DNA of 63,611 nt, the filler included, from Folioceros fuciformis (taxonomy: Eukaryota): NCBI GenBank assembly GCA_049999805.1. It is 9 parts of 9 records of this genome, joined end to end, with 100 filler letters (N's around TTAATTAATTAA, not from the genome) between each part and the next. Parts side by side here need not be neighbours in the genome. Positions count along the whole stretch, not along the records: positions 38,995 to 45,204 come from JBNGIO010005825.1; 8 more parts are not named here. One strand, 5' to 3'. The translations under genes were made by a program, and so were the position numbers. Each line of letters starts with the position of its first letter. The first letter of the stretch is position 1. Of this stretch, positions 588 through 63,611 are shown in pieces. The notes below the pieces were generated by a model. It was given only the letters and a program-made list of their open reading frames with translations, made no database searches and was not told where the DNA came from.

Positions 588-1374
588 CTAAGGAGGCCTT
601 AGCCTGTTCCTAGAGCATGCCATTACTCCTCTCAACTATGGGATTCTGCTTTGACGTGTAGGAAATGGTAAGTTGTCTGGATATTCCCAATTCCCTACAC
701 AGCTGCTTGAATGAGTTTGACCCATACTCGCCTCCACCATCTGTCCTGAGTGTCTTCAGAAGATGAGAGGTTTGTTGTTGTGCATTTGCTAGGTAGTCCT
801 TAAAATACTCTAACGCTTGTGATTTCTTTGTGTGGAGGCAAAACCCCGGGCACTGATTGCCGACGGATTCCACCTTTAGTGGCCACACTTATCCCACTGT
901 CGTTGAGACATTGGGTTTCGTTCCCACGAAGGAGCGATGGGGTTCCTTGCTGCTGTGGATGGAGGGTCGGACTTGATCAACTCGATGATGGATTCGAGGG
1001 CTCCCCTCTAGCTCCGATCAGGCGTAGGACANNNNNNNNNNNNNNNNNNNNNNNNNNNNNNNNNNNNNNNNNNNNNNNNNNNNNNNNNNNNNNNNNNNNN
1101 NNNNNNNNNNNNNNNNNNNNNNNNNNNNNNNCTAAGGAGGCCTTAGCCTGTTCCTAGAGTATGCCATTACTCCTCTCAACTATGGGATTCTGCTTTGACG
1201 TGTAGGCAATGGTAAGTTGTCTGGATATTCCCAATTCCCTACACAGCTGCTTGAATGAGTTTGACCCATACTCGCCTCCACCATCTGTCCTGAGTGTCTT
1301 CAGAAGATGAGAGGTTTGTTGTTGTGCATTTGCTAGGTAGTCCTTAAAATACTCTAACGTTTGTGATTTCTTTG
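588..1374. repeat. 243-bp direct duplication (588-830 and 1132-1374) flanking a gap
   Basis: Direct comparison shows 3 substitutions; copy 1 is followed by R1, copy 2 continues into intact host sequence. Confidence 0.95.
831..1031 (-). mobile_element. R1 LTR terminus inserted in element A integrase
   Basis: TGTGGAGGCAAAACCCCGGG start recurs at 10706, 18080, 52530 (reverse complement) and 61093; strand inferred from TATA orientation in longer copies. Confidence 0.85.
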
Positions 1375-3947
1375 ACAGGAAGTATACTACCGTGAACCTA
1401 CTCCAATCATCAATGAAGGAGAGGAAATACCTAGCACCTCCAAAGGACTACTTTGACATGGGATCACACAAGTCTAAGTGAACCAACTCTAGTAGAGACT
1501 TAGCTCTAGTATGATTCTTATCTGTATGTGGCAACTTGTGATGTTTGCCATAGATACAGGGTTCACAAAATAATTTAGGCTGAGGCTGAAGCTTAAGGGG
1601 CTCCCTATACAGGTTCCCTGCTGCTGCTGCCTTCATTCTTCGCACATGAATGTGCCCAAGTTGATGATGCCAGAGTTTGAAGTTGGCAGCCTGCTCAGCC
1701 TGCATGAGGTGTGCAGCTGCGTGTATGCGTGAAGGTGTACACTCTAGTTTGTACAGGTCATTTGAAGGGTAAGCTATGGCCAGCAGCTGCCCATCTTGCT
1801 CTATGTGGCATTCATCAGGTTTGGACTCAAACAGAATACGAACCCTAGGCAATTCAACCTTCATCTTGGTTACTGACACCAGGTTTTTCACCATTCTAAG
1901 TACATGAAGGACATCTAGGAGCATGATCTCATGCCCAGATGGCAACCTAAGGGGGACTGAGCCTGTTCCAAGGATGGGCAGGGCTCTATCATCTCCTACA
2001 CGGGCTATTTGTCCACTTAGTGCAGGTTTATAGTCAATGAAGGCCTCATGCTGATTGCAGACATGGTGTGAAGCACCGAAATCCATGAACCAGCATCTCT
2101 TGTCCCCGTTTGAGGATATTAGACACGTTGCTAGGATGGTACCAGTTTTCTTGACTGTGGCAGTGTGTGATTCGGCATTGGAGGATCCTGCCCGCTTGGG
2201 CTCTCCAGCTGCCTTCTTGCGACAGTCACGCTCAAAGTGGCCTGGAATCTTGCACCAATTGCAAGTTCCCTTTTTCTTCAAACCGTACGGCTTAGACTCC
2301 GAGGTACGCTTCCCACCTTGCCTGCCGCTTGACATGCGAGGTCCCTTCCCCTTGGATGAGTATAAAGCTCAACTAGAGCTTCCTTCGTGTCTTCCTTCAT
2401 GCCTACTCCCATGTCAAGTGGCTTCTTCTTCTAACAGGACTCCAGTGAGGTTGCCTCCTCCAACTGCTCGCATGTTGTTGTTTTGCAAGGATACGAAGGT
2501 TCTGTAGCTGGAGGGTAGAGACATGAGCAGGGCTGTTGCAGCCTGTGTCTCGTCCAACTTGGTGCCACATGCTGCCAAACGTGCTCTAAGAGCTCGAAAT
2601 TTGTTTAGGTGCGCTTCAATCGGCTCATGTTCCTTCATCTTGAGATGCTAGAACGCCTTGGTTGAATTAACCATTGACGTAGAGTTCTTGGTTTGGAACA
2701 TCTGGTCGAAGGTTGACCACATTTCTGCAGTTGTGTCAAGCCCTTGCACGTGGTGCAACATGTTGTTGTCAAGGCCTGCGACTAATATGCTCTGAGCTCG
2801 GCGATCAGCCTTGGCCCAAGCCTCGATGTCAGCAGGTGGGGAACCAACTGGTGGCTTCACAATTGTTCCCAAGACAATATCCAGCAAGTCCTACTCTTCA
2901 AGAATGGTACGCAAGCAAATTGTCCAAATTTCGTACTCGCTGCCATTGAAGCGATCACGGTCCTTGAAATCAACCTTGAAATGTGTGATGGTTGTGTGTG
3001 CAGGTACTTGGGGCGCCTGACCACCACCACCACCACCACTGCCTCCTCCTCCTCCACCGCCTGGTGCTCCAAACATGTTCGGTGCTGACTGAGGCTTAGG
3101 AGTTGTTCTTAACGGGATCTTGAGGAGCCTTGGTCGTTGCGGAGGTGTTTGTGGTGCAGATGAGGTTGAAGACCCTCCTTCTGACGAAGGTGGGCGAGAG
3201 ACCATAACCTAAGTGCTCCTACAGGTCAGAGGGTGACCCATTTGCAAATGCAGGTTTAGTCTTTCTAAGTAGCAGGTCTAGAGAAATGAGGATGTCTAGC
3301 AAGCCACGTACCTTCCTATCCAAGAAATCTAACTTGCGAGAAATTGTCACAAGCAGGTTTGTTGCATCTCTCACTCTGTCCGCAGAGATACTCTTTGATT
3401 TATGCTGTAATTTTGTATGGGCTTGTCCTTGCCAACTGAGAGATTGCAAGATAGCTAAGAGTTGAGGGTGCATGTGTCTATGTGTTTTTGGTTTTCTATA
3501 AGGATGCCTAATGCAGCCTGTGAAAGAATTCCGAGACTGGGTGGTGTCCTAGCCGTAGCCAAAACCTGGATGGCTGCCCACAAATGTATGATTTGACGGA
3601 CAGCGCGTGTGAGCACGAAGGCTACTCATGTAAGCTGCGCACAGCCTCGCTCAGGCGTTCCAACCAACAGTGTCTTCCCCGACGCTTCTCCGGTAAGGAC
3701 TCGAATTCTCCTCAACAGAGTGTAAGGCAACAATTGGTGCTGACTAGAACTTGGCTGTTTCCAGGAGCGCTGATTTTGGTGTTGTTGATTACAACCTTGT
3801 CGAGGCATCTTGAGGTCCTCCAAGGGCGGGGTGATCTCTCCTAGGCGCCAGTTTCCTGGTTTGCACTACTTGGAGGCATGCTGCAAATGTGGTGCATTCT
3901 CCAAGGCTAAAATCAGAAATGTAGTGCAATACAGGTAGATGCGACAT

Positions 3948-3959
3948 GCTCTAATACCA
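3948..3959 (-). promoter_or_regulatory. Primer-binding site (tRNA-iMet), one mismatch
   Basis: Minus strand TGGTATTAGAGC versus the canonical TGGTATCAGAGC. Confidence 0.85.
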
Positions 3960-7871: not shown

Positions 7872-8121
7872 TGTTAGAAATCAAGCTCTAACTGAATTAT
7901 TATTAAGAGCATACAACACTTAGGATAGTGTAGATTATCCTATATTGAACTTGTAGTTATCTACAACCTAAGTGTTATCAGGATATACCAAGATATTTCA
8001 CCCTCGAGACTAAGGCTTACCTTATTAAGGGTTGCCCCACTTGAAGGCTATATATGTAGCATCTTGTGCACCATAAGAATGTATTGTGGAGTCCATCTAC
8101 GCTAGTGGCGCTATTTCAACA
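7872..8121 (+). repeat. 5' LTR of copia element C (250 bp)
   Basis: TGTTAGAAAT...ATTTCAACA inverted termini, TATATAT near 8049, immediately followed by a PBS. Confidence 0.85.
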
Positions 8122-8135
8122 TGGTATCAGAGCCA
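8122..8135 (+). promoter_or_regulatory. Primer-binding site (tRNA-iMet)
   Basis: TGGTATCAGAGCCA. Confidence 0.95.
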
Positions 8136-8686
8136 GAGAGAGCGCCGGCAGCCATGGTGGCTATGGCGGGGGTTTGAGGCTATGGCTGTGAGCGTGAAGG
8201 TGGTTGGCAACGCAAGCCATTGAGAGGCACAGGAGGCACAGCAGCGTAGGTGGCGTGGGAAGCCGCGACAGGCGCCAAGAGCGCGCGAGAGGCACGAGAG
8301 GGAGAGAGACTCACGAGGAGCAGCAACTAATGGAGGCAACCAGGCCGTGGAAGCCAAAGCAGGCCCAGGATTTGCGAGGAGGAAGGCCTGAACTTGGCAA
8401 ACAGTGTTATGTTTTTTGAAAGCTTGAGCAAAGGCTGTTTTTTGCTTAGTGAAGATTCAGTCAGCTGCACATTCAGGAATTGGTGAGATCTGATTGAGGC
8501 TTGTGGAGTGTAGGAGCTCTACAATAGTGCAAGGAGTTGCACTCAAGATTGTCAAAAACATCTGTTGGAAGACGCATGAAAGTGTTTTGACAATCTGTCC
8601 ACAAGGGACTTGGTGGCACAACAAGCAAGAGAAGGCAATTGAACTTAGGTGCAGGACAAGTGTTGGTGCGTAAAGGAGCCTGAATC

Positions 8687-12483: not shown

Positions 12484-12583
12484 NNNNNNNNNNNNNNNNN
12501 NNNNNNNNNNNNNNNNNNNNNNNNNNNTTAATTAATTAANNNNNNNNNNNNNNNNNNNNNNNNNNNNNNNNNNNNNNNNNNNN
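12484..12583. other. Artificial scaffold-joining spacer N44-TTAATTAATTAA-N44 (also 19437-19536, 35350-35449, 38895-38994, 45205-45304, 47872-47971, 51068-51167, 61353-61452)
   Basis: Identical 12-mer with stops in all six frames centred in 100-bp N blocks. Confidence 0.97.
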
Positions 12584-19436: not shown

Positions 19437-19539
19437 NNNNNNNNNNNNNNNNNNNNNNNNNNNNNNNNNNNNNNNNNNNNTTAATTAATTAANNNNNNNN
19501 NNNNNNNNNNNNNNNNNNNNNNNNNNNNNNNNNNNNCAG

Positions 19540-25200: not shown

Positions 25201-25822
25201 TATTGGGCTCATCCAGCCTCCTCAAAACATCAGCATGAACCTGCCTGCCAGATGTCAAATCGGATGCACTGGCACAGGCTTTGAGAGCAGCCACAAAGGT
25301 ATGATTGTCTGGCATCACTGTTGACTGCCGCATTTGCCAGTACATCTCTATTGCTTGGGTAGGCTGTCCATGGTCAGCGTGTGCCAAAATAATGGAAGAC
25401 CATGAATAAGCATCCGGAGAGGCGAGTCCACTGAACACCTGCGATGCTTCTTCCAGACTCCCATGAGATGCGTACATCCGGATGATGTGATTGGCAAAGA
25501 ATCTGTTGGACTCGCAGCCATTACTGACCACAAGAGCATGAATACGACTGCCAGTAACCTTGTCCTTCTTCGTAATGCACCCCTTGAGGAACCCAGAAAA
25601 AAAGGATGTGGATACATAACACCCTTTCTGTACCAAAAGGTCCAGCACTTCAGCACCCTCAAGGAGCTCCTCCCCGCCACATGATTTCTTCAAGGTCCTT
25701 CCCTTTCGATTCACGTGACACTCTCCCACCCTGCAAGATCCAGGGCCTGTCAAACCGTGAATCCTTCCAGTAGTTGAGAAGGATACATACACTACCACAC
25801 CAGGTAGCTGGCTCGAAGGCAT
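22295..25822 (-). pseudogene. PLS-class PPR RNA-editing factor with E/E+ and no DYW; two frame disruptions (~23640-23656, ~22930); the true 5' end may extend to ~26200-26440
   Basis: About 9 P-L-S triplets (DVVTWNAML..Y.QHG / TFVCLLKAC / LVDMYAKCGSL), then LGACRKHG, YVLMSQIYA, GCSWIE, HSFSVG. Confidence 0.85.
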
Positions 25823-35250: not shown

Positions 35251-35449
35251 CCCCTGCACCGATGACGGGCACCAGATCTTGCTTCTGCCCCCGTAGGCCC
35301 CCGACGCGACATTTTATCCCCACCCTGATCCCACGCCAAGGAACTAATTNNNNNNNNNNNNNNNNNNNNNNNNNNNNNNNNNNNNNNNNNNNNTTAATTA
35401 ATTAANNNNNNNNNNNNNNNNNNNNNNNNNNNNNNNNNNNNNNNNNNNN

Positions 35450-38894: not shown

Positions 38895-39555
38895 NNNNNN
38901 NNNNNNNNNNNNNNNNNNNNNNNNNNNNNNNNNNNNNNTTAATTAATTAANNNNNNNNNNNNNNNNNNNNNNNNNNNNNNNNNNNNNNNNNNNNACTCCC
39001 ACTTAGACAGGCTGTAAACCACTTCGTGCTCTTCAGTCCTCGTGCAACATACTTCCAGTTTCAGCTACCATGAATTGTGGATTCTCGGCAGTATTGCTCT
39101 TGATGTCGGTGGTGAGTCTGCTGTTGCTAAAAACGGTGATGCGGCACCGGAGTCCGTGCTCGATGTGCACGCAATTTGCTAGGGTGTATTCTGCTGAGGA
39201 AGAGTTGGAGGCAGCTCATGCTCGTTGGCGCAGGCTGCAGGAGCTTCACAGACTTGCTCCATATGCTCCCCCTTTCGCTACCTGCCCAATTACATGGACA
39301 AATTTATGTATGCCGGCAGCAAGTTACTGAAGAAGGCCGCTCGATCATTAGATATGGTCGGACTTCTGTACTCTCCCACTGCTGCTGTTTTCCTCCATAA
39401 ATTCTCCTCGAAGTTCTAACCCTGTGTTGCTTGTATTGCAGAGACTTGATATAAGTATACCACCTTCATGCCTCTAAGGCGCTTCAAGAGTAGCTGATAA
39501 ACCTGCACGAGTTCTTGTGCCTGTGCAATGCTTGCCAAGTGGGAACTCCTGACAG

Positions 39556-42500
39556 CTAAGGACCCTCAGCAAGCCCCATAGCCTTGCAGAATCTATCATG
39601 TTTGTCTTTAGCCAGTGCTTTGGTTAGGATATCAGATACATTGCTGTTTGTTGGAACATACTGCAGGTTAGCCTGTTCACTGCTGATCACTTGCCTAATG
39701 AAATGATGCTTTACCTCGATATGCTTAGTACGTGCATGCATCACTGGATTTTGTGCTAATGCTATTGCTGACTGGTTGTCACATAACAGCAAGGTGGGTG
39801 CATGCTGCGTTTCACCAAGTGAGGAGAGCAGCTCCCTTGCATACACAATGTCCTGAGCAGCAGTGGCTGTCGCTGCATATTCAGCTTCTGTGGATGACAG
39901 AGCGACTACCTGTTGTTTCTTGCTGTACCAGGATATGGCTGTAGAGTCATACTCATCTGCTCCCAGCAGCAGGCAATTAGCCGAGATTGACTTGCGGGTG
40001 TCTGAGTCAGACGCCCAATCAGCGTCACAAAAACATGTAAGTAATAAATTTTCTGGACGCTTCTTGTACTTCAAACCAAGCTTAGGTGTTCCTTTTAGAT
40101 ATCGCATAACCCTCTGGACAGCTGTCCAGTGTGATGTTCCATAGCATGTAAGGAACTGAGATGTAATGCCCACGGCATGTGACAGATCTGGACGTGTCCA
40201 GTTCCTGCAGTAAATTAGTGAGCACACTGCTGAACGATATGGAACCTTTTCCATTTGTTGGCGTTCTTCTTCAGTCTTTGGAGATTGCTCGATGCTCAGC
40301 TTCTCTCCTACAGCCATTGGGGTAGGAGCTGGCTTGCACTCTCCCATTCTGAACCTAGACAGGATTTGACTAATGTATTGTGCCTGGTGTATCCAGACCG
40401 TGTGTGTGGCAAGGTCCTGATGTATTTCTATGCCAAGAAACCAAGTTAGCTTGCCAAGATCCGTCATGGAGAACTCTGAGGTGAGAATCGACTTAACTTT
40501 CGCCATTAGTTTTGGATTGCTGGCAATGAGGACTGCGTCATCCACATACAGAGCAAGGTACACCACTCCTTCCTTGTCTTCTAACTTGTAGACGTTGGAG
40601 TCGGCCTCGCTTTGGATGAAAGCTGAATTTTTCAAGTATGTGTCAATCCTCTTGTACCATGCCCGAGGTGATTGTTTAAGGCCATAGATGGTCTTGACGA
40701 GTTTGCACACTTTCTTTGGGTGTGCTGGGTCTACGAACCCTTCTGGCTGGCACATATATATAGTTTCCTCAAGTGTCCCGTTCAGAAAAGCTGTTTTTAC
40801 GTCCATGTGCTCCATAGCAAAATCTCTCTGAGCTGCAATGGCAAACAAGGTGCGCACAGAGGTAGCCCTAACAACAGGTGAGAAGGTTTCAGTGTAATCG
40901 ACCCCTTCTACCTGACTATACCCTCTTGCAACAAGCCTTGCTTTGAACCGTGCCACACTGCCATCTGCTGCAAGTTTTTTCTTGAATACCCACTTGCACG
41001 TAACTGCTTTCCTGCCTGGTGGCAGGTCCTCGAGTTGCCAAGTGCCATTGTCCAGCAATGATTGATATTCTGCTTCTATAGCAACCTTCCACTGGGCAGC
41101 TTCGGGGCAGGTAACAGCTTCCTTGTAAGATAGTGGTTCTCCCAAGCTATCTGGAGTAATGTCATCTTGCACAAGAAAAGTACTGTACGTTAGTGGTGGG
41201 GTGTTCCATTCTGTTGGAGTCGAAGTGTGCCTACGACCACTCCTTCGAGGCTGAGCTGGTTCCACTTCCTCATTTGTTGGCTTATCAACTTCTACTTCAA
41301 CAGCAGCATAGGTACTTGACTGTTTATTGCCATCTGTTTCACTTTCACCTTCTTCGGGGAAAAAGCTAACTTCCTCCTGCACTGATGTGGTGACTGGAGG
41401 CTGCACAGGAATTGGTGGGGACACATTCTGCTGCTGTACTCCCACTGGAGATGTTTGAGGTGGAGGATAGGTCACTGAGTGATAATCAAATGCATCCTGT
41501 TCCAGCATGTCATCTGGATGACTTGTGGAAGCATCATCATCCGGCAAGGAGGCAGCTCCCTCTGTAGGGTAAGTGAGTAATAGCTGCTCGTGAAACACTA
41601 CACTTCTACAATGAGTTGTAAAACGAGTATCGGGGTCAAAAAGTTTATAACCTTTTATGCCCTCTGTGTAGCCGACAAAGACAAATTTCCTTGCCTTGTA
41701 ATCTAACTTTACCCTCTGGTCTTCGGATAAGTGGGCATACGCAGGTGAGCCAAAAATGCGAAGATGGTTAATACGAGGTTTATAATTTGTCCACCTCTCA
41801 AACGGAGTTGCTCCTGCAAACACACTGGTAGGCAGCCTGTTTCTGATATAGGCAGCTGTGGAAACTGCCTCTGCCCAGTAGCATTTGGACAATCTGGCCT
41901 GCTTCAGCATTGACTTTGCAGTTTCCTGAATGTGCTTGTTACTAACCTCAGCAACTGGATTTTGTGACGAGGTGTATGGCGTTGTGTACTGCCTGGCAAT
42001 ACCTTGGCTTTTGCAAAAATCTTCAAAGGCCTCAGAACAGTACTCCCCTCCGTTGTCACTGCGAAGAGTCTTCAACATAGCTCCAGTTTGGCGTTGGGCA
42101 AAAGTAACATACTCCATGAAGCAGCCTAGTGTCTGGTTTTTCTGCTTGATGAGGTACACAACGATATATCTACTCCAATCATCAATGAAGGAGAGTATAT
42201 ATCTTGCACCTCCGAAAGATACAGTGGACATAGGTCCACATAAGTCTGAATGTACAAGTTCCAGCAACTGCGTGGCCCTCATAGGATTGCTGTCCTTGTA
42301 TGGTGCTCGATGGTGTTTTCCAAAAACACAAGCTTCGCAGAATTGCTTCTCAGCGAACTTAATCATGAACTTCTCGCGGTACAAGGTATTGCTGGCCACC
42401 ATTAACTTAAGTTTGTCAAAGTTAGTGTGTCCGAGACGACAGTGCCAGAGCCTTGTATCTCTTTCAGCTTGCTGGGCTTGACTGAGATTGACAGTGGGGT

Positions 42501-44157
42501 TGCCTAACTTGTAAGTGATGTCAAGTTGGTACAAGTTGTGCACAGGAGTGCCTATAGCTACCACTTTGTTCTTGTATTGTGTATTTACTACTGTACACTG
42601 CCCGCCAGTAAATGTGGTGCTTAGCATATGTTGAGTGTCCAACAGGTAAACCGAAATGAGGTTCTTGACCAGTGATGGTACATGAAGAACTTCTAACAGG
42701 TCGACTGTAGTCCCATCCTTAAGGAGAATGGGCACTTTACCAATGCCGACTATTGGTAACCCCCGATCATCACCTAGCAAGACACTTTGCCCTCTAGGGA
42801 TTTTTCTGTACTCTGAAAAAGCTGACAGTGTGTGGCAGATATGTGAAGAGGCACCGGAATCCAGGTACCAAGCATGGCGGTATTGAGGTGTAGACACCAT
42901 GTAAACTGTCAGGAGAGTGTTTGTCTTGCGCTGGACCATATTGCTTTCTGGAGGTACAGTCCTCCTTGGCTCGTTTGCCTTTTTCTTCCTGCACTCCGCC
43001 TCCCAGTGCCCTGGGATGAGGCACCAGTTACACGGCCCCTTCTTCTTCTTAACAGATGCTGACGATGGTCCAGCTTTCTTGCTTGCATTGATGTTCGTTT
43101 GATTGTTCCAGGATTGCCGAGATGGTTGCCTGCGAGGACCCTTGTTTACGTAAAGGGCCCTGTTTGAGGGCTCTCCTCTGGAGGATGGTCCACCTCTACT
43201 AGCATGCCTGGTTGTCTCCTCTTCAAGGAGAGCTCCAATCAGATCCGATAAGGCCACTGCAGGGACTTGGCCTGCAGGTGTAGCCTGGGCTACTGTACGA
43301 AGATTCGTACTGTGGTTGCTGACGAAGGTCCGATAACTTTCCGGTAGTGACAGTAAGAGTGCGACTGCTGCTTGCATCTCTGTTGTTTTAGTGCCACTCG
43401 AGGTAAGCTTTGACCTCAGCATGCGAAATTTTTGAACATGTTGCTCGACTGAATCATGTTCCTTCATTTTGCAATTGTAAAATGCCCTTGTGGCACTTAC
43501 TAAGGACGAGCCATTCGTCACTTTGTATATTTGTGACAGCGAGTCCCACACATCCTTTGTAGAGTCTGCATCTTGGGTATGATGCATCATTGATCCGTCC
43601 AGGGCAGCTTGTATAATTCCAAGTGCTCGGAGATCTTGTTTTGCCCAAGCATCTCTGTCAACTTGGGTAGCAGTAGCTGCTGGCTTAGGGAATGTACCTG
43701 TGACAACACCCCAGAGGTCGTTTTCCTTCAAGATGGTTTGAACTCTCAGAGCCCAAATGTCAAATTGGGTTCCATTAAACCTATCTCTTTCTTTAAAATC
43801 TATTTTAAAATTATTGACTGTGGTGTTGTGCGTTACAGGTCCCTGTTGTGCCATTATGCGTACTACTTGTGAGGCTATTGTAGCCCTAGTGGCGTGTGCA
43901 AGTAAGGTCGCCCGTGTGACTTGATCTGATGATACAGATTGTGCACTCTGTGCTGAATGAGTAGGTTGTGAAATCTGGCCGACGTTAGACTGCGAAGAGG
44001 TGGTTGACAATGCAAGGGGGTCAACAACTAGTGAAGGTCCAGTGCTTGGATCTGTGATGGGTGAGCCTCTTCCTCGCCCAGCACCCCGACCTGCACCTGT
44101 GCCCCTGCCTCGACCTCGACCAGTAGGGTTTCGTGCTCCTCGAGCACGATATGACAT
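39556..44157 (-). CDS. Intact copia Gag-PR-IN-RT-RNaseH polyprotein (1533 aa from ATG 44157)
   Basis: CNWCLIPGHWEAEC, YLDSGAS, HCRLGH, LRSDNGGEY, MDVKTAFLNG, LYVDD, DADWA, DILTKAL; no stops. Confidence 0.96.
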   Translation of the reverse strand: MSYRARGARNPTGRGRGRGTGAGRGAGRGRGSPITDPSTGPSLVVDPLALSTTSSQSNVGQISQPTHSAQSAQSVSSDQVTRATLLAHATRATIASQVVRIMAQQGPVTHNTTVNNFKIDFKERDRFNGTQFDIWALRVQTILKENDLWGVVTGTFPKPAATATQVDRDAWAKQDLRALGIIQAALDGSMMHHTQDADSTKDVWDSLSQIYKVTNGSSLVSATRAFYNCKMKEHDSVEQHVQKFRMLRSKLTSSGTKTTEMQAAVALLLSLPESYRTFVSNHSTNLRTVAQATPAGQVPAVALSDLIGALLEEETTRHASRGGPSSRGEPSNRALYVNKGPRRQPSRQSWNNQTNINASKKAGPSSASVKKKKGPCNWCLIPGHWEAECRKKKANEPRRTVPPESNMVQRKTNTLLTVYMVSTPQYRHAWYLDSGASSHICHTLSAFSEYRKIPRGQSVLLGDDRGLPIVGIGKVPILLKDGTTVDLLEVLHVPSLVKNLISVYLLDTQHMLSTTFTGGQCTVVNTQYKNKVVAIGTPVHNLYQLDITYKLGNPTVNLSQAQQAERDTRLWHCRLGHTNFDKLKLMVASNTLYREKFMIKFAEKQFCEACVFGKHHRAPYKDSNPMRATQLLELVHSDLCGPMSTVSFGGARYILSFIDDWSRYIVVYLIKQKNQTLGCFMEYVTFAQRQTGAMLKTLRSDNGGEYCSEAFEDFCKSQGIARQYTTPYTSSQNPVAEVSNKHIQETAKSMLKQARLSKCYWAEAVSTAAYIRNRLPTSVFAGATPFERWTNYKPRINHLRIFGSPAYAHLSEDQRVKLDYKARKFVFVGYTEGIKGYKLFDPDTRFTTHCRSVVFHEQLLLTYPTEGAASLPDDDASTSHPDDMLEQDAFDYHSVTYPPPQTSPVGVQQQNVSPPIPVQPPVTTSVQEEVSFFPEEGESETDGNKQSSTYAAVEVEVDKPTNEEVEPAQPRRSGRRHTSTPTEWNTPPLTYSTFLVQDDITPDSLGEPLSYKEAVTCPEAAQWKVAIEAEYQSLLDNGTWQLEDLPPGRKAVTCKWVFKKKLAADGSVARFKARLVARGYSQVEGVDYTETFSPVVRATSVRTLFAIAAQRDFAMEHMDVKTAFLNGTLEETIYMCQPEGFVDPAHPKKVCKLVKTIYGLKQSPRAWYKRIDTYLKNSAFIQSEADSNVYKLEDKEGVVYLALYVDDAVLIASNPKLMAKVKSILTSEFSMTDLGKLTWFLGIEIHQDLATHTVWIHQAQYISQILSRFRMGECKPAPTPMAVGEKLSIEQSPKTEEERQQMEKVPYRSAVCSLIYCRNWTRPDLSHAVGITSQFLTCYGTSHWTAVQRVMRYLKGTPKLGLKYKKRPENLLLTCFCDADWASDSDTRKSISANCLLLGADEYDSTAISWYSKKQQVVALSSTEAEYAATATAAQDIVYARELLSSLGETQHAPTLLLCDNQSAIALAQNPVMHARTKHIEVKHHFIRQVISSEQANLQYVPTNSNVSDILTKALAKDKHDRFCKAMGLAEGP

Positions 44158-44171
44158 CCGAGGATGTCTTT

Positions 44172-44774
44172 TCAAAAACTGTTCATTTTTCCTCCCTTGG
44201 ACGGAGACTGGCAACGTTCAGTCTCCTTCTCCCATTGATCAGGTACTTGTACCATCTTGTTGATGTGAGGTTTGCTTGGTCCTTGCAGATGTCTGGAACC
44301 GAAACGGGTTTCAGGTGTAACAAATCGTGGTTCCACAGAGATAGCCTGCACTTGTAAAATGAGGGAAACAAGCCTTCTACTATTCTCTCTTACACTATCT
44401 CTGATGTCGTGGATTTGTTTAAGAATGTTGCAGGTTGACGATCTGACCAGACCACACAACTCGACTAGTAACTGATCTGTAGAGGAAGGGAAGTAATTAA
44501 ACTTGTCCTTTGAGTTTTCTCTCAACCTAGCTGCTGAAACCTCAGTGGTTTCTTGTAGGTTTTTGCGCACCTGCTGTGTTATGTGGGATAGTGGGTCTGG
44601 TTTCACTATCCTAGATTGATGACCTTTGGTTCTATGGCTTGACGCGATTGCAGGCTTGACAGTTTTTGAGAAAAACTGGTTTAACCTATGATGCTGTTCT
44701 GCCATGGACATACCAGAGTATCCATCAAAATGATCTACAGACAGGTTTGCTTTGTGCTTCCTATTTCTCGGCAT
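44172..44774 (-). CDS. Extra upstream ORF (ORF0, 200 aa) between PBS and gag of element E
   Basis: ATG-initiated, sense strand, stop 14 nt before the gag ATG; positional and weak sequence counterpart in element A. Confidence 0.6.
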   Translation of the reverse strand: MPRNRKHKANLSVDHFDGYSGMSMAEQHHRLNQFFSKTVKPAIASSHRTKGHQSRIVKPDPLSHITQQVRKNLQETTEVSAARLRENSKDKFNYFPSSTDQLLVELCGLVRSSTCNILKQIHDIRDSVRENSRRLVSLILQVQAISVEPRFVTPETRFGSRHLQGPSKPHINKMVQVPDQWEKETERCQSPSKGGKMNSF

Positions 44775-44957
44775 GACGCACTATTAAGAGTAATAGACAC
44801 CAGCGTCAGCCAGAATTGCATCTGCCATGGTTCCAGTTCTGGCCAGTGCAGGCTCAAATGCACAAATGAGGTTGCGAAATTCTTGATGTGAAAATTTCTT
44901 AGTGCAACTCTTGCTTGTGCAGATCGCGCAGTGGTCAGCGGCCATGACGGGAACACG

Positions 44958-44969
44958 GCTCTGATACCA
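44958..44969 (-). promoter_or_regulatory. Primer-binding site (tRNA-iMet)
   Basis: Minus strand TGGTATCAGAGC. Confidence 0.95.
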
Positions 44970-45366
44970 TAGAGATCTACGAGGGATCGAGGATGCAAGA
45001 TTAGGAAGCTTATTAAACTTATTAAAGATTGTATGTCCTTGAGACAATATGACCGTAAGTGAGATAGACGTGTCTGTCCACAAAGGTGTGAACCAACCGT
45101 CAACGGTCACGACGTATGAAACGTGACAGCGTTTCATATCTATGCTAATTAATAATTATATTAATTAACCCTAAAAGCCTGGCTATTCAATATTATAATT
45201 AACTNNNNNNNNNNNNNNNNNNNNNNNNNNNNNNNNNNNNNNNNNNNNTTAATTAATTAANNNNNNNNNNNNNNNNNNNNNNNNNNNNNNNNNNNNNNNN
45301 NNNNCGAGGACATGTCATGTTCGTGTCAGCTGGCATTTCTGCTGCTATAGGTTGGTGAAGTTTTTC

Positions 45367-47871
45367 TTAGGCTGCAGTAGGCATAGCAAACACCCTCAGC
45401 CCCAAGGCTGAAAGGTGCTTGTAGTGCTTTGGCTTGCTCAAGCCCTTTGTAAGAATGTCAGCAGTATTGTCATCAGTGCTGACGTATTTCACTTTGACTA
45501 TGCCTCTTTCAGCCACATCGCGAATATAATGATGGTAAAGCTCGATGTGTTTGGTTCTCGCATGAAAGCAAGGATTGGACACCAAGGCGATAGCAGACAA
45601 GTTATCACATAACAACAGGGTTGGCCCTTTTATGAGGTAAGTGCACAGCACCCAAAAATTGCCGCTCCCATTCTAACTCCTTGCACGCATCCGTCAAGGC
45701 CTTATACTCAGTTTCAGTAGAAGACAAGGCCAGCGAGGTCTGTTTCTTACAAGACCAGTTTACAGCATCTTGAGCAAGTAGAAAGACATGTGCAGAGAGA
45801 CTCTTCCTTGTGTTTGCATCAGATGCCCAGTCGGCATCAGAAAAAGCAGATAAGGTAAGCTCCCTCTCACTGGTCCTGGTGTAATGTAAACCATACTGCA
45901 GAGTGCCTCGTAGATAACGATAGATATGCTTAACAGCACCCCAGTGTACTCGTCCAGGTGCCTTCAAGAATTGTGACACAATGCTGACAAAGTAGCTAAT
46001 GTCAAGACGTGTCCAATTGGCAAGAAAAATTAAGCACCCTACAGCCTCAGCATACGGAACTCCAGCCATTGACTCCTCATCAATAGCATCTTGCGGAGAC
46101 TGCTCACAGGTCAGCTTTTCCCCCACTGCTGTTGATGTAGACACGGGCTTCGCAGAGTCAAGATGGAATCGCTTCAAAATCTCTTTCATGTACTTTGTCT
46201 GATGCAGAATCATGGTGCCTTGTGCCTTGTCTCGTAGAATCTGGATGCCAAGACAGAAGGCAAGGGGACCCTGATCTGTCATCTCAAACTCTGATCGGAG
46301 GAGAACTTTGACTTCGTCCATCTGATCAGGGTGATTACTCAACAAGATCGCATCATCAACATAAAGTGCCAGAATGACGAAGAAGCCATCAGAAGGAAGG
46401 TAAAAAACATTGGAATCTGCTGGGGACTGTACAAAGCCATGCTTCTTGAGAAATTTCATGATCCTTTTATACCATGCACGAGGGCTCTGGTTGAGCCCAT
46501 AAATCGTCTTTAATAGTTTACAGACCTTGTCAGGAAACTGCTTGTCGACGAACCCTTTAGGCTGGACCATGTACAAAACTTTTTCAAGCTCACCGTGAAG
46601 AAAGGCTGTACACACATCCATCTGATGCAATTCGAGATCAAATTGGGCAGCCATAGCAAGTAAAATCCTAACAGAACGCGGCTTCACAACAGGCAAAAAA
46701 GTGTCTCCATAATCAATGCCAGGTATCTGTGAAAAACCTCGGGCTACTAAGCGTGATTTGTATCTCGCTATGGTGCTATTTGCCTTTAATTTTGTCTTGA
46801 AAACCCACTTACACGTGATGGGTTTCCTACCAGGTGGCAGGTCGGTCAACTCCCAAGTGTTGTTCTTTACAAGGGAGTTGTACTCGTCATTAATAGAAAT
46901 TTGCCAATGCTTGCCATCAGGTCCCTCAAGTGCTTCCTTATAGCTCTGAGGATCCGGTCGAACATCTAAAACATGAATGTCGGCAACATGTGCGAAGGAT
47001 CTGCGAAAATCAATTGACTGATAGGGAGGTTCCTGCCAATCTGCCCGTGCTCGTCTTTCACGAACAGGATATCTAGGGGATGTATCCCCCACTGCAGGGG
47101 CAGGAGGTGCTCCCTCTTTGTCTGGACGATCTGATTTTGGATGCAAATCAGCGAAACCAGCAGACTCATGAGCACTGTCACTGTCCATGCTTGCAGCATC
47201 CTCAAAGATGTGACTGTCCACATCTGATCCAGGGTAAGCCCTTTCAGCATCATGGTCTGAATTATGATCATCATGTCCTACAGGTGCTGCATCAACAGCA
47301 AAATGATCATGTGCTGTTGCATGCAAATTGGGATGCTGGGGGTTTGGAGGATTAAGAATCTCATCCACAGCTGCAGAATCACCAGCATCTGGTGCCTCAC
47401 CATCTGACTGAGGATATGAAACAGGTACCTCTAGAGAACTGGGGTCAACCAAACTGCTGTCACTGGAACTACTATCAGCATTGCTTGTAATATCCTTATC
47501 TGAATGTGGGAAGGTGAGCTCCTTGAATACAGCACTATGTGATGATGTTATCTTGGAGGTAACTGGATCATAAAGCTTGTACGCCTTAGACTCTTCTGAG
47601 GATCCAACAAACACCAGCTGTCTAGAGCGATTATCTAACTTCTTCCTCTTTGCTTCAGGTATGAACGCAAAAGCAAGAGATCCAAACACCTTCAAGTGCA
47701 GAAGACTAGGCTTTCGTCCCCAAAAGGCCTCATAAGGGGTTTTCCCTGGCAGAGCTGTCGTCACCACTTGATTCAACAGATAAGTTGCAGTGACAGCAGC
47801 CTCTGCCCAATATGTTTTTGGTAAACCTGAATAGGACAGCATGCTCCTGGTCATACCCATGATGGTCTGGT
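45367..47871 (-). mobile_element. copia pol (IN C-terminus, RT, RNaseH) with one frameshift near 45650
   Basis: YWAEA, QMDVCTAFLHG, LYVDD, SDADWA, TADILTKGL. Confidence 0.93.
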
Positions 47872-47971
47872 NNNNNNNNNNNNNNNNNNNNNNNNNNNNN
47901 NNNNNNNNNNNNNNNTTAATTAATTAANNNNNNNNNNNNNNNNNNNNNNNNNNNNNNNNNNNNNNNNNNNN

Positions 47972-50900
47972 CGAGCCTGGCTGACCTTCTGGCTACTCTC
48001 AACCCTTGTAGAGGTTCCTCCTCCCTCACCGGTAACCTGTTCATCGAACTCTCCCTCTTCTACTGTATGTACAGCAGCAATCAACTCCTCATCAGGAAAC
48101 CTGTCATCCGTTTCTCTAACCTTTCCTTTGGTTTTGAGTCTAGAAACAAAGTCAGCATTAACATGGCTCTTCCCTGCTCTTGTTTCCACCTCAAAATCAA
48201 ACTCCTGCAGCAAGAGAATCCACCTAGCGATCCTCCCTGATAGGTCAGGCTTGTTCACAAGATACTTCAAAGCAAAGTGGTCCACATGAAATACTACCTT
48301 GCAAGCTAGAAGATAGTGACGAAACTTCTTACAAGCGTAGATGATGCCCAAAGCTTCTCTCTCCGTTGTGGAGTAATTCCTCTCCGCATCCGTGAGTTGC
48401 CTTCCGGCATAGAAGATAGGGTGATCCCTCTTCTTGTCGTCTTGTTGGCTGAGGATGGCCCCTATAGCATAGGCTGACACATCCACATACACATGAAAGG
48501 TCTTCTCCCAATTTGGTGGGCTCAATGTGGGTGCTGCCACCAAACTCCTCTTCAAGTCCTGAAACGCTTCCTCCCTCTCCGGGGTCCACTCATACAGCAC
48601 ATCCTTCTTCGTTAGCTGGGTCAAAGCTGCCGCCTTCTTAGCGAAGTCCTTGATGAATCTCCTGTAGTAACCCACTAACCCAATGAAAGCTCTAACCTGT
48701 CTCACGCTCTGAGGTGCATCCATCTCCGAGATGATCTTCACCTTCTCCATGTCGACTTGCAACCCCCTGGCTGAAACTCTATGGGCTAGCAAGATACCCT
48801 CCGTCATGCAAAAGAAACACTTCCCTGGATGCAACTTGAGGTTAGTCTCCCTACACCTCTGCAAGCACTTCCTTAGCTGTTCCAAGTGTAGGTACCTCCT
48901 TCCAAAGACACAAAAGTCATCCAAGAACACCTCCATGAACTTCCGAAGGAACTCCTTGAAAATGGTATTCACCACCCGCTGAAAAGTTGCCGGAGCATTG
49001 CAGAGCCCAAAAGGCAACTTGGTGTAGGCGTACGTCCCCCAATCAGTTGTGAAAGTCGTCTTGTCGCGATCCTCCTCCCTCAGTGTGATCTGATTGTAAC
49101 CTGAATACCCATCTAGGAAACTGTACATCTCATGTCCAGCAACTGTGTCCAGCACACTGTCCATGAAAGGGAGTGGATGATGATCTTTCTTGGTCGCCTC
49201 ATTGAGCTTCCTGAAGTCCTGGCAAACCCTCACCTTGCCAGCTTGCTTCTTAGGCACCACCACAATTGGAGCTACCCACTCACTAGTTAGGATAGGATAG
49301 ATGACTCCAGCCTCCAAGTATTGATCCAACTGCTCCTTCACAACCATGGAGTACTTTGGGTTCAATCGGTATTGCTTCACCCGAACCGGTGTGCTTCCCT
49401 CCTTGAGATCTATCCTATGAACACCCAGCTCCTCCGGAACACCTGTCATGTCCGTCACCTTGAAGGCAAACACATCCAAATATTCAGTCAACAGTGCCTT
49501 CAAACCTACCTTCTCCTTGGGTGTGAGGTACTTGGACACCTTGACCTTCTTCCCTGGGGTCAACTCCATGTCCTCAACAGCATCGGGATCCACGTAAACT
49601 CCTTCGGGACTACTCCCTACACTTGTTCCTGATCCTTCTTCTGGGAAATCATAGTCATAGGCTTTCCCCTTCCAAAAGGCAGCTCCTTCCCTTCGCTCTT
49701 CATCCTCCTGTGGATCTTCATTCTCCACCACTTCAGTATGGAAACAAGTCACCTCTTGACCCAAATCCACCATCCTGACAGTATGCCCTACTCCCTTGTA
49801 GGCTCCTGTACTGCTGGAAGTGCTACCTCCAGCACTACCGGATGTGTACCCGGGGGATGGTCCTGCTGTTTCTCCCCCATAGGGAGCTTTGCTCCACGAG
49901 ACAAACGAAACTTCAGCAGGTCCTGTAGGTTTAGACCTAAAGGTCACACCTTTCCTGCCAAAATCAAACACACAAGCTGTCCCGTACAACCACGGTCTCC
50001 CAAGGAGCAACTTGTACCCCAGGTCAGACACTGGCCTCATGACAATGTAGGTTAGCTTGAACATGATCCCTCCTATCACCGTGGGTACATCCTTCAACAC
50101 TCCTAGAGGCTTCCTCTTGGTCTGATCTGCCATCCGAAGGTACACGCGGATAGGGTCAAACTCCGTGAACCCCAAACGATGGGCTGTGTCCTCCGTCATG
50201 AGGTTGACACCAGACCCCGTATCCAACGGTACATCCGGTACCAGACAACCTGCAATCTCCACCTCTATTTCAGGAGCTCCACAATCAGCCAACTCCACTG
50301 AACTCATCCACGTCGGGACTGTCTTCCCTTCGAGTGGCTCCGGTATCCCTCGGATGGCTTCCTTGACGATCTTCCTGGCCTTGGGACTAACAGACAAGAG
50401 CTGTCTCAAGCTCACCACAAACTCCTGGTCAAGCAAGGCGTCAGCAAATCCAGCAACCTTCATGGCCAAAGCCTCCCTTGCTGTTCTTGTTTTAGGAGGA
50501 TTGATCCCTCCATCCTCCTCGCTTCGATCAACCTTCTCTCCTTCCTGTTCCTTCTCCAAGGGACTTGCACTCTCCACCACCCCTGTCACAAGAGGGTCTG
50601 CAAACGTGACCTTCTTAGACTGGTGCATCAGCCTAGTCAGCTCTTCCTCCAGCATTGCAGCAACCTCCTTGCTAATGTCGGGTGGGAATGCTGATTCTTC
50701 AACCTCTCCTTCATCTAGTTCACCTTCCTCTCGATGAGGTGGAACAACCTCTTGTCCAGTCGACACATCATTCTTCCCTTGCTGGACGAGTGGTTCCTCC
50801 CTTGCCTCCGATGGTTTAGAAGTGTTGTCACGTTCTCTCCTCCTTCTCTTCTCTTCCTTCTTCGTCCTCTCCCGATAACGACGTTCAGAACGAGTGGTGA

Positions 50901-51067
50901 CCCTTGCCACCATGACTTCTTCACCATCGCTAGCTTCGCCTGAATATCCCTCCTCCACAATACCAGAAAATGCTTGAGAGTCAATCAAAGGCTCCTCCTC
51001 AGCCTCCACCGACAACACAGGTGCGCTTGTCACTGGAGTTGTTGTCTCCACCGCAGGAGGAAGTCCC
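47972..51067 (-). mobile_element. Ty3/gypsy polyprotein (gag tail, PR, RT, RNaseH), open throughout; non-chromovirus-like
   Basis: LDTGSGVN, FLDGYSGYNQI, LPFGLCNAPATFQR, VFLDDF, NYSTTEREAL, RIARW; PR-RT-RH order. Confidence 0.95.
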
Positions 51068-51167
51068 NNNNNNNNNNNNNNNNNNNNNNNNNNNNNNNNN
51101 NNNNNNNNNNNTTAATTAATTAANNNNNNNNNNNNNNNNNNNNNNNNNNNNNNNNNNNNNNNNNNNN

Positions 51168-60776: not shown

Positions 60777-61054
60777 TGATGAAATATGACCTATTAAGGG
60801 CACTCTTCACTAGGGCACCTAAGACTATTAATTAATTTAGTTCTTAGGGCTTTAGGTAGTTTATTGAGTAGTTAGTTGTTAGAACCACTTAGAGGTTAGA
60901 ACTACTTATGGTTATAACTACCTAGCCTATATAAAGGCTTTGTACTTTCTATTATAATCAATGCATACAACTCTTTTTGTGCAAAGCTTTCTACTATATG
61001 CTTGCTATGTTTTGCTACCTAGAGCAGCCATGATTCTCGTCATGGTATCAGAGC
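60777..61054 (+). mobile_element. 5' LTR (60777-61042) and tRNA-iMet PBS (61043-61054) of a further, probably copia, element
   Basis: TGATGAAA...TTCTCGTCA termini, TATATAAA near 60928, TGGTATCAGAGC. Confidence 0.8.
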
Positions 61055-61352: not shown

Positions 61353-61452
61353 NNNNNNNNNNNNNNNNNNNNNNNNNNNNNNNNNNNNNNNNNNNNTTAA
61401 TTAATTAANNNNNNNNNNNNNNNNNNNNNNNNNNNNNNNNNNNNNNNNNNNN

Positions 61453-63611
61453 CCTTCAGCAATTCGTCATAGTTGTCCTTCAGCAACTTGTCAAGGGGAC
61501 AGGGAGTTGGAGAGGTTGTGTATGGACTGCAATCAGCCAGGGCATATGGAAGGCAGTGTTCTTTGTCAACCACTGAAGAAGCACGTGGGAATTACTCAAC
61601 CTCCAATTACAGCAACCCAACCATCCATGGGGCAAAATTCAGTACCAGAGATGCATGTCCAGAATACACTCATGGCGGTGTGGGAGGATGCTGAAGCCAA
61701 CATGCTGAGAAGTTTGGAGGGCTTGGAGGACCTGGACAGTGGGTACTACGAGGAGACACCAGCTATGGATGTCCGAACGCGGAGGGAGAAACAGGATGCC
61801 AACAAAAAGGTGGATGCTTTCAGGAGAGGAGAACGGGTGAAGGGGAAGGGCAAGACCGAGCGAGGTAGTCGAGAGACAACGCCGGTAGCGGAAACCCCAA
61901 CCCTGGTAGCTGAAGAGGTGGTAGTGGAGGCGCCTGCGACCCGACATTCTGGTGCAGCAACCCAGCCAAGCGGACCAATGGGCAATCATACGGGTCTGGA
62001 GAATGAGGAGCGAAGCATGGACGTTGCAGCAAATGTTAGTGGCAAGGAGCAAGAACCAAGGAGTTCAGAAACAATTGTACTAGTTTCTGGTCATCCTGAT
62101 TCCACTACTTCAGTACCTGATTCCACTATCGCGGTACCTGAAGGAGCCACCAAGGTTGCTAAAGCACGGGTTAGTACAAGTGCTAAGAAGGGGAGAGGAC
62201 AGGTAGACGAGGCCTTCAATTTGGCCAAGGCTGTCATAGACCACAAGCTCATGGTGACATTAGGACAGCTTCTCCAAGACAACCCGCGATTCCGCCAGCA
62301 AATTCGGAGAGCATTGAAGGCAGCCCAACCCAAGAAGAAGAGGAGTCTCCCCAAGCTAAGGAAGAGGCCACTTGCTGTGAACCTAGTGGTCATGGCTGAT
62401 CAAGGCCCTGTAGAGTTGCAAATAGAGATCTCGGGGTGTATAATTAAGAAGGTACTGCTGGACACTGGTTCTGGGGTCAACATCATGACGGAGGATACAG
62501 CCCGGAAGCTGGGGCTGGAGATACAACACACGGCTAGGGTGTTGCGACTTGCAGATATGTCTAGGATGGCATCTGTAGGGGAGATTACTGGAGCGTTGAC
62601 ACATATTGGTACCGTTCCGTACCACATGGACTATGTGGTCATCAAACAGAAAGCTCCTGGATATGATGTGTTGATTGGCCGAACGTGGATGTATGGAGCG
62701 CGTTGCACCTTCGAGTGGGGAAGGAAGGAAGTAAGCTTCAGACCTCTGGACTGGGATCCCAAGGATAAGGAGGGAAGGACATGCTTATCCTGGAGTTGGG
62801 ACCCGCATGCAGGAGAAACACCTATGGAGACCAATGGTTACACTTCTGCAGAAGACACGGTTGGAGGGGAGAATGAGAAAGAGAGGTTCCCATTTGCCCA
62901 CATTTCTTGGTCGGATGAGGAGAGGAACTACCAAAGGAACATCCCCCACCTGGTGAGTTGTTATGGAGTGACAGTTGACTGCACTGTTGCAAAAGTTACT
63001 ACCAAGGTAGCCGAAGGAACTACTGAGGTAGCCGAAGGGACTACTGAGGTAGTGGAAGGAGGAACGCCAGTCGTAGACAGTGGTGGGACGGATGCAGAAG
63101 GTGCTGAGACAGTAGCTGAACAGGGGGGCAGACTACCAAACCAAGATCCTGAAGAGCTTGAAGAGGCCTGCAAACATGTGAACACTGATTTTATCTCACG
63201 GCTGAAGATGGAGGAGGAAGCTTGTGACAAGGAGGAGGATTTTTCCGATGAAGCTCTGTTCGCAGCAGGGTCAGAGGAGGAAGCGGTTGCACCGACTGTG
63301 AAGATAACGAGCAATGGCAGTGCAGCAGAAAATGAGAAGGGGAGACCTACCAGGCCTATTTACATTGCACTAGATATCTGAGTTCTTGGAGTTGGGGGGG
63401 GCAGTCCCTCATATCTTTGGAAGCAACAACAACATGCCTTGGGGCTGGACGGGAGAGAAAGGCTGTGGGTAATGGAGGCACAAATCCTGCAGGTGCTGAC
63501 TGATTTACACAAAGGAGGGGAGCCTAACCACATGACTGGTGAGGGGAGTCAGCTGGACAGACTAGTTAGCCTGGTGAGACACATAGAAGACAGAGGACAA
63601 GCACTGGCTGT
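61453..63611 (+). mobile_element. Ty3/gypsy derivative: gag tail, PR, RT/RNaseH absent, degenerate integrase start
   Basis: CMDCNQPGH knuckle, LLDTGSGVNIMTEDTA, YDVLIGRTW colinear with 47972-51067, then jumps to HVNTDFISRL. Confidence 0.88.

Follow-up and report, generated by a model that had tools for sequence, protein, structure and literature searches.

The window analysed here is a 63.6-kb chain of contigs from the genome of the land plant Folioceros fuciformis. One of these contigs (6210 nt, positions 38995-45204) is occupied by a single mobile element, here termed E. Judged from the domain order gag - protease - integrase - reverse transcriptase and from a primer-binding site (PBS) adjoining its long terminal repeat (LTR), E is a Ty1/copia LTR retrotransposon. 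Its gag-pol forms one intact open reading frame (ORF) on the minus strand, with the Pfam domains Retrotran_gag_2 (residues 140-320), Pol_BBD (430-508), gag_pre-integrs (541-615), rve (633-729) and RVT_2 (1037-1281). The leader between PBS and gag contains a further sense ORF of 200 codons (ORF0). ORF0 may represent a genuine, family-specific protein-coding 5' forward extra ORF of the class known as eORF-5'F (extra ORF) or 5'aORF (additional ORF), a reading to which a probability of roughly 45 % is assigned. A decayed relative of E, element A, is located within the first scaffold of the window.

The length of ORF0 is non-random, and the ORF fills the leader, ending 14 nt short of gag. When the 802-nt leader was shuffled 5000 times with dinucleotides preserved, no ATG-initiated ORF of at least 200 codons arose (largest 197, mean 58); at least 150 codons were reached in 17 and at least 100 codons in 309 of the shuffles. 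The ORF0 span is crossed without any break (stop or frame change) over 600 nt, whereas its shuffles have 5.2 breaks on average and never fewer than 2 (0 of 500 equally open), and the remaining two sense frames over the same stretch carry 15 and 9 stops. Tandem repeats, an artefact excluded by REXdb, are absent from ORF0, since Tandem Repeats Finder applied to 38995-45204 reported no array within 44172-44774. An earlier sequence-only reading of this DNA had described in E a 200-aa sense ORF with MPRN start, terminating 14 nt before the gag ATG; this description holds in its coordinates as well as against shuffled controls. The in-frame open stretch upstream of ORF0 includes a 117-codon ATG-ORF (45137-44784) and a 53-codon upstream ORF (uORF; ATG at 44945, strong context), and contains no Pfam family. 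It was considered as a piece of a longer former ORF and rejected as evidence, since it crosses the PBS as well as the LTR and since such stretches are common in shuffles (when the 998-nt region of E was shuffled 6000 times, 876 of the shuffles had at least 110 open codons).

The predicted ORF0 protein is hydrophilic and basic, with a pI of 10.1 and a high content of serine, arginine and lysine, and its basic N-terminus (MPRNRKHK) resembles a nuclear localization signal (NLS). Single-sequence AlphaFold2 prediction places helices at residues 24-44, 61-91 and 99-145, with residues 101-140 at a pLDDT (predicted local distance difference test) of 74-84. If translated, ORF0 would yield a basic, partly helical and partly disordered protein with an NLS-like N-terminus, which would likely serve the element as a nucleic-acid-binding or nuclear accessory factor.

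In position and character ORF0 fits a catalogued class of extra ORFs, but it fails the length cut-off of REXdb. According to the main text of Neumann 2019 (PMC6317226), 5410 copia and 8453 gypsy elements were screened for extra ORFs of at least 250 codons, which were classed by position and orientation. As in eORF-5'F, ORF0 is located upstream in forward orientation and is not composed of tandem repeats (at least 3 monomers, >150 bp), whereas its 200 codons stay below the 250 codons required there. The likeness to eORF-5'F and to the 5'aORFs (Steinbauerova 2011 as cited; PMC7264820, main text) extends to sense orientation, location between LTR/PBS and gag, orphan status and absence of tandem repeats; the difference is that ORF0 belongs to a Ty1/copia element, while the copia extra ORFs treated in the main text of PMC6317226 (SIRE) lie 3' of pol. 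That text reports, for 582 of 5410 Ty1/copia elements, extra ORFs that sort into 45 groups unlike one another and mostly devoid of known domains, and names the eORF-3'F of SIRE (74 % of SIRE elements) as the sole extra ORF characteristic of a copia lineage. This env-like ORF resembles ORF0 in being a heterogeneous, orphan sense ORF of Ty1/copia, and differs by its location between pol and the 3' LTR. More generally, aORFs occur up- or downstream of gag-pol and in either orientation (Vicient & Casacuberta 2020, PMC7264820, main text), and upstream extra ORFs are otherwise tied to Ogre, Tat and Athila in the texts of PMC2533021 and PMC9181549. No 5' sense extra ORF is described as a feature of a copia lineage in the open-access main texts covered.

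Among gypsy elements, the 5'aORF of sunflower Tekay 13-2 (PMC11728184, main text) is about 400 aa long and retained in 500 of 523 elements; its product has an NLS, few helices and long disorder, and has no sequence similarity to the 5'aORFs of grass Tekay elements. Location upstream of gag, a basic NLS-like motif, few helices with the rest disordered or of low confidence, and orphan status are shared with ORF0. In contrast, Tekay is a Ty3/gypsy chromovirus with an ORF of about 400 aa and documented retention (500 of 523), while ORF0 comprises 200 aa, resides in a copia element and is known here from E. ORF1 of Ogre (Ty3/gypsy, Tat) is likewise a 5' sense extra ORF upstream of gag. According to the texts cited, the Ogre ORFs are far longer (e.g., 1527 bp in Medicago Mtr70; PMC2533021) and a plant mobile domain is found in 57 % of Ogre elements (PMC6317226), whereas Pfam finds no domain in ORF0 and E belongs to copia. 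The background offered by the sequence-only reading, with 5' extra ORFs as typical of Ogre and copia extra ORFs as located 3' of pol, agrees with the main text of Neumann 2019 (PMC6317226), but omits the 5' extra ORFs of Tekay (PMC11728184).

Table 1. Features of elements E and A and joints of the window (positions along the whole stretch)
Feature	Position	Strand	Remark
5' LTR of E, 3' part (235 nt)	44970..45204	minus	directly upstream of PBS; ended by contig edge
PBS of E, TGGTATCAGAGC	44958..44969	minus	exact match
Upstream stretch open in ORF0 frame, 123 codons	44787..45155	minus	spans LTR end and PBS
Tandem in-frame stops TAA TAG	44781..44786	minus	6 nt ahead of ORF0 ATG; close the upstream stretch
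ORF0, 200 codons + TGA (44174-44172)	44172..44774	minus	ATG 44774; begins MPRN
Spacer from ORF0 stop to gag ATG, 14 nt	44158..44171	minus	
gag-pol of E, intact single ORF, 1533 aa	39556..44157	minus	ATG 44157
Structured leader RNA of E, PBS to gag start, 836 nt	44140..44975	minus	folding versus shuffles
Two perfect small hairpins at ORF0-gag junction	44132..44168	minus	fold prediction
Leader of A	3206..3959	minus	PBS-like site to gag
PBS-like site of A, TGGTATTAGAGC	3948..3959	minus	1 mismatch
Decayed gag-pol of A	1132..3205	minus	6 in-frame stops in 691 codons; cut by assembly gap 1032-1131
Linkers between contigs	12484-12583, 19437-19536, 35350-35449, 38895-38994, 45205-45304, 47872-47971, 51068-51167, 61353-61452		
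100-N scaffold gaps	starting at 1032, 10968, 11905, 31260, 31990		

Several results weigh against a coding function of ORF0. The open frame was flagged because it is open, which constitutes a selection effect. The AlphaFold2 model as a whole has a mean pLDDT of 60 and a predicted template modelling score (pTM) of 0.31, and the Foldseek comparison with PDB, a step that the sequence-only reading had envisaged, gave no match at E<=0.001. Pfam recognized no family, either in ORF0 or on translation of all six frames across their stops, a word-indexed search of 5.8 billion proteins with ORF0 as query returned 0 matches, and exhaustive HMMER comparison with 1.84 billion representatives revealed no credible homologue. 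In ESM Atlas the best score of 0.77 and the recognition value of 1376 fall within the range of shuffled sequences. A codon log-likelihood score trained on the gag-pol of E itself reaches 0.075 for ORF0, a value attained by 135 of 876 chance open stretches (0.031 +/- 0.043); the score is therefore uninformative for ORF0. By comparison, means for 200-codon windows of held-out real genes of the window range from 0.11 to 0.22. The leader is also the most structured part of E, and a function at the RNA level would explain this structure too. Furthermore, the ORF0 AUG is not the first one in the leader, the alignments with the A leader described below do not exceed shuffle level, and the only other readable copia leader of the window (exact PBS at 8122, gag at 8687, length 553 nt) contains no sense ORF of at least 40 aa, its 5 breaks being typical of shuffles.

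Searches of other kinds were negative as well: a metagenome scan with ORF0 produced 195 pattern matches with 0 confirmed, and the alignment of ORF0 with the gag-pol of E was equalled or exceeded by 137 of 200 shuffles, no better than chance. The lone HMMER match to ORF0 (E 2e-4) is a 1094-aa internally repetitive protein, matched in 5 repeated stretches, and was judged spurious.

Folding of the E leader yielded -255 kcal/mol as compared to -219 +/- 8 kcal/mol in shuffles (z -4.67, 20 shuffles). In a second run with 25 shuffles each, the leader attained z -4.76 in sense and -5.07 in antisense orientation, while five equal windows of the E gag-pol gave -3.47, -1.31, -1.98, +0.45 and -1.77, the leader of A -0.28 and the copia leader at 8120-8700 -0.81. 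Since the antisense strand folds as strongly as the sense strand, the signal is attributable to inverted repeats in the DNA rather than to a property of the sense RNA alone. Rfam returned 0 matches at E<=1 for 44100-45204. From the ATG at 45137 in the LTR up to and including the gag AUG, 13 sense AUGs are present, and 11 of the 12 preceding ones are located at or after the PBS. The ORF0 AUG has G at position -3, and the context of the gag AUG is weak. Given at least 9 AUGs between the PBS and the gag AUG, among them that of the strong-context 53-codon uORF, it is implausible that gag is reached by plain scanning, irrespective of whether ORF0 is a gene, so that Gag would have to start by a non-scanning route. 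This route might consist in reinitiation 14 nt past the ORF0 stop, in shunting or internal entry through the strongly structured leader, or in the use of a separate or spliced RNA.

The odds between a coding ORF0 and a structured non-coding leader with an incidental open frame are about even. On the latter account the leader would act as RNA in packaging, dimerization or control by shunt or internal ribosome entry site (IRES), and ORF0 would be open by luck or recently ex-coding; this is a serious contender, held to fall somewhat short of an even chance. It is in keeping with the fold of the leader (z -4.7 to -4.8, against -3.5 to +0.45 in gag-pol windows), with a codon usage indistinguishable from that of chance ORFs, with the failure of the above searches to find a homologue, family or fold, with the several AUGs and the 53-codon uORF ahead of ORF0, with the third copia leader (PBS 8122) that has no comparable ORF, and with the way in which ORF0 was picked, namely for its open frame. 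Pure luck is, however, unlikely for one leader in view of 0 of 5000 shuffles reaching the length of ORF0, the ORF terminates just ahead of gag rather than at random, and the fold is equally strong in antisense (z -5.07).

At the ORF0-gag junction, a first perfect hairpin (44168-44153) encloses the gag AUG in a 6-bp stem and begins 4 nt past the ORF0 stop; the second (44148-44132) follows just downstream. The fold of the 111-nt junction (-33 kcal/mol, z -1.81, 9 of 200 shuffles as good) represents a mild signal. Relative to ORF0, gag is read in the -1 frame, which is open upstream to a stop at 44220 (from 44217) and overlaps ORF0 across the U5 run at the end of ORF0. A canonical -1 slippery site is a heptamer of the form X XXY YYZ, with a stimulatory structure expected 5-9 nt downstream. 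The end codons of ORF0 (AGU UUU UGA) form a non-canonical heptamer, and at most a P-site slip on UUU is conceivable. A UGGGA motif, the core of calicivirus TURBS (termination upstream ribosome-binding site) motif 1 according to the text of PMC5972666, is located at 44234-44230, i.e., 56-60 nt ahead of the ORF0 stop. On both strands of the window UGGGA occurs 172 times versus 166 expected (about 1 per 740 nt per strand), corresponding to a chance of about 10 % in 80 nt, and the junction of A has no UGGGA, only UGGGU. The arrangement in E shares with the TURBS systems of caliciviruses and influenza B and with the TAV-dependent polycistronic translation of cauliflower mosaic virus (CaMV; PMC5972666, as described in its text) the close long ORFs, the stop-restart distance of 14 nt and the upstream UGGGA; it differs in that the motif is at chance frequency in E, that no TAV-like protein is encoded and that the E junction is known from sequence alone. 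Coupling of ORF0 and gag by termination-reinitiation or by a -1 slip is geometrically possible, the canonical signals deviating or being at chance frequency. Independently of this, a 14-nt inverted repeat (13 of 14 positions complementary) connects 44659-44672 with 44169-44182 at a distance of 476 nt, placing ORF0 codons 35-39 opposite the U-run and the stop at the ORF0 end; the minimum-energy fold takes a local hairpin over this pairing.

Element A shares 44.7 % identity with E over 653 aa of gag-pol, as compared to 28-31 % for two other elements, which makes E and A mutual nearest relatives among the comparable elements of the window. In the leader of A, a frame starts at ATG 3808 (MPRQ), is interrupted by one frame change and, downstream of it, by an in-frame TAG (3551-3549), and its last open part closes at TAG 3221-3219, 13 nt ahead of the gag ATG at 3205. 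The geometry given for A by the sequence-only reading is thereby borne out, with a span of 587 nt. At least 2 breaks (stops and frame changes) have to be crossed in this span versus a mean of 4.65 in shuffles, 70 of 2000 of which do as well. The antisense strand of A is equally stop-poor (3 breaks; 18 of 500 shuffles), the whole leader is matched in breaks by 66 of 500 shuffles, and the longest open stretch of 109 codons is reached in 281 of 2000. The break density of the span (about 3.4 per kb) is like that of the A gag-pol (about 2.9 per kb; shuffles of the span 7.9 per kb), which is compatible with an earlier ORF having decayed together with the rest of A; judged from these counts, the case for such an ORF in A is marginal.

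Similarity between the ORF0 of E and the leader of A was also claimed by the sequence-only reading, on the basis of a C-terminal segment aligned by eye, but did not withstand controls. Smith-Waterman alignment of ORF0 with the three sense frames of A scored 30, 28 and 40, and 312, 368 and 26 of 500 shuffles, respectively, scored as high, a shuffle-level outcome that the sequence-only reading itself had listed as speaking against the relationship. The segment in question is contained in the first of these alignments; as a 31-residue pair it scores 24 versus -10.9 +/- 8.1 in its own shuffles (0 of 2000), having been selected post hoc. With ORF0 as query, tblastn against the window (E<=10) detected ORF0 itself and an 11-residue match (E 9.8) in the gag-pol of E, but nothing in the A leader. 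At DNA level, blastn (word size 7, E<=1e-3) detected no similarity between the E and A leaders, each matching only itself, and the A fragment with X at its stop yielded no homologue in the searches performed.

The model of the sequence-only reading, in which a lineage comprising E and A possesses ORF0 as an old, conserved accessory gene coupled to gag by termination-reinitiation, is accordingly considered improbable. The part concerning an intact copia element with a non-random 200-codon ORF0 stands, while conservation in A is unsupported and the frame in A marginal; nothing shows ORF0 to be older than the family of E itself. Such a gene would agree with the long leaders of both elements (about 800 nt in E, 745 nt in A), with frames starting in both with MPR[N/Q] 139-183 nt past the PBS and ending 13-14 nt before gag, with the two breaks of the A span (70 of 2000 shuffles) at a density like that of gag-pol decay, with the unusual low-complexity N-terminal extension of Gag (about 110-125 aa) common to E and A, and with the UGGGA (TURBS motif 1 core) 56-60 nt ahead of the ORF0 stop. 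These resemblances are countered by protein alignments at shuffle level in three frames and leaders devoid of DNA similarity, by the equally stop-poor antisense strand of A, by the A fragment having no homologue, by the differing stop-to-ATG phase (14 nt in E, 13 nt in A), and by a UGGGA that is at chance frequency in E and missing from the A junction. Moreover, reinitiation past long ORFs is rare and requires TURBS or a TAV-like factor, as stated in the text of PMC5972666.

Two further explanations are regarded as very unlikely. ORF0 could be an N-terminal extension of Gag, produced as an ORF0-Gag fusion by a -1 slip on the U-run at the ORF0 stop. The -1 gag frame, open from 44217 and overlapping ORF0 across the U5 run, the 6-bp hairpin 4 nt past the stop with a second hairpin after it, and the T5 run that is without difference in contigs of two DNA runs would permit this, but by the heptamer rule the site in the ORF0 frame is non-canonical, little space is left before the hairpin, the junction fold reaches just z -1.81, and A is in the other phase, so that the arrangement is not common to both elements. 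Equally far-fetched appears a recent transduction of sequence from a host gene or a different mobile element. ORF0 is, as far as visible, confined to one low-copy family, and host-sequence capture by plant LTR retrotransposons is documented (PMC7264820, main text); against this, no relative of ORF0 was found in the 1.84 billion representatives, in Pfam six-frame analysis or in the rest of the window, and ORF0 aligns with the gag-pol of E at shuffle level (137 of 200).

At present, ORF0 is a single orphan ORF of one low-copy family; such ORFs are known to be frequent in plant LTR retrotransposons, and the main text of PMC6317226 describes them as heterogeneous and doubts the function of the fast-diverging ones. 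If ORF0 were retained and translated, it would clearly exemplify a 5' accessory gene of Ty1/copia, as opposed to the SIRE ORFs 3' of pol, and the tight junction between ORF0 stop and gag start would provide a testable plant model for the translation of two long ORFs from one capped RNA. One may speculate further, at rather long odds, that E and A belong to an undescribed land-plant Ty1/copia lineage with a long structured leader, an extended low-complexity Gag N-terminus and a fast-evolving 5' accessory gene that, by terminating 13-14 nt ahead of gag, would hand ribosomes to Gag. Retrotransposons would then have an equivalent of the polycistronic translation known from plant pararetroviruses and of the TURBS of caliciviruses.

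The PBS motif of E (TGGTATCAGAGC), which we take to be the complement of the 3' end of tRNA-iMet, is present in the whole window with up to 2 mismatches in 7 places versus 5.8 expected. Because the motif is near chance frequency, its position beside the LTR end counts and not the match itself. Most copia elements prime from the 3' end of tRNA-Met (Neumann 2019, PMC6317226, main text). The LTR stretch 45140-45204 is AT-rich and TATA-like. No direct repeat was found inside the 6210-nt contig, and contigs of two of four sequencing runs (X1-X4), namely X1 and X3, which may stem from the source sample, link 45204 back to 38995 with 18 nt between, as would be expected if two near-identical LTRs had been collapsed into one in the assembly. 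From this the LTR length would be roughly 530 nt, the LTR start after the polypurine tract (PPT) not being fixed. Contigs specific to E from runs X1 and X2 (records 7 and 13; 1237 nt each, across the leader) have 0 differences. With its intact gag-pol, apparently collapsed LTRs and zero-difference contigs, E looks intact, young and low-copy.

Searches with Gag of E were largely unproductive. Residues 1-500 gave 1 match (26 % identity) in the protein database, the RG-rich N-terminus having probably consumed the word candidates, while residues 105-420 gave 158 pattern matches in the metagenome scan and Gag 15 in the viral-contig scan, with 0 confirmed in either. Exact look-up in the protein collection showed neither ORF0 nor the gag-pol of E to be present. 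The low-complexity N-terminal extension of Gag (E, 43780-44157; A, 2900-3205; both on the minus strand) consists of an RG-repeat followed by a Ser/Gln-rich part in E and of a Pro/Ser-rich part followed by a Gly run in A. It precedes the conserved DUF4219-type motif that is usually located near the start of copia Gag.

Contigs of the four runs were placed on the E contig at a likeness of at least 80 %. Throughout the ORF0 region, every bin has about 8-12 units of depth in excess of that contributed by E's own contigs. Record 14 of run X2 (depth 10.9) spans 43762-44347 with 74 differences and 19 gap letters, and judged from these contigs at least one relative, about 87 % identical and at about a quarter of the depth of E, has the leader of E too. 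Among the rearrangements listed, one shows 8 nt in place of 77 nt (44552 to 44630). The frame is preserved by this net change of -69 nt, which hints only weakly at retention of ORF0, as a third of indels would preserve the frame by chance. Joints connecting 43767 to 44958 and 43838 to 44957 were rejected as leader deletions or splicing because their short side covers only 23-25 nt and the letters between are not specified; they are read as relatives with common PBS region and gag, but with a leader that cannot be aligned. Run X4, by guess RNA, contributes 2 contigs on E, both less than 90 % alike and outside the leader, and thus has no bearing on expression or splicing.

In run X1, a contig with a depth of about 10 passes from 43748 to 44135 across a single letter, indicating that some diverged relative is devoid of 386 nt (43749-44134) of the low-complexity N-terminal part of gag. 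Run X3, to which most of the differences listed belong, resembles bisulfite or enzymatic conversion, with 538 C>T and 607 G>A places versus a few dozen of each other kind. In the X3 contigs on E about 55-67 % of the cytosines of one strand are converted, e.g., 86 differences versus 131-133 C or G in 44050-44603. As about one third of the cytosines is left unconverted, which is above CG sites alone, E may be partly methylated.

The contigs of the window are joined by linkers of the form N44-TTAATTAATTAA-N44, and some 100-N scaffold gaps are present besides. Features across a linker are therefore not physical neighbours, as in case of E and the copia pol fragment at 45605-47860. Other contigs encode a 722-aa PPR (pentatricopeptide repeat) protein, a PPR fragment with E motif, a fasciclin-domain ORF and a Rad51-family ORF. 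At 22295-25822 (minus strand), the 722-aa PPR ORF (23654-25822) is followed by ORFs with PPR and E motif in other frames (22846-23502 and 22295-23023), which may together represent a single PPR-E gene split by frameshifts or sequence errors. A 997-aa ORF at 47920-50913 (minus strand) has the look of a gypsy-type gag-protease-reverse transcriptase, as judged from its translation rather than from Pfam. On a separate contig, a 619-aa ORF (61522-63381, plus strand) has by eye a retropepsin-like middle part in common with the 997-aa ORF. The contig adjoining that of the 619-aa ORF contains an exact copia-type PBS motif at 61043-61054, which is unrelated to this ORF.

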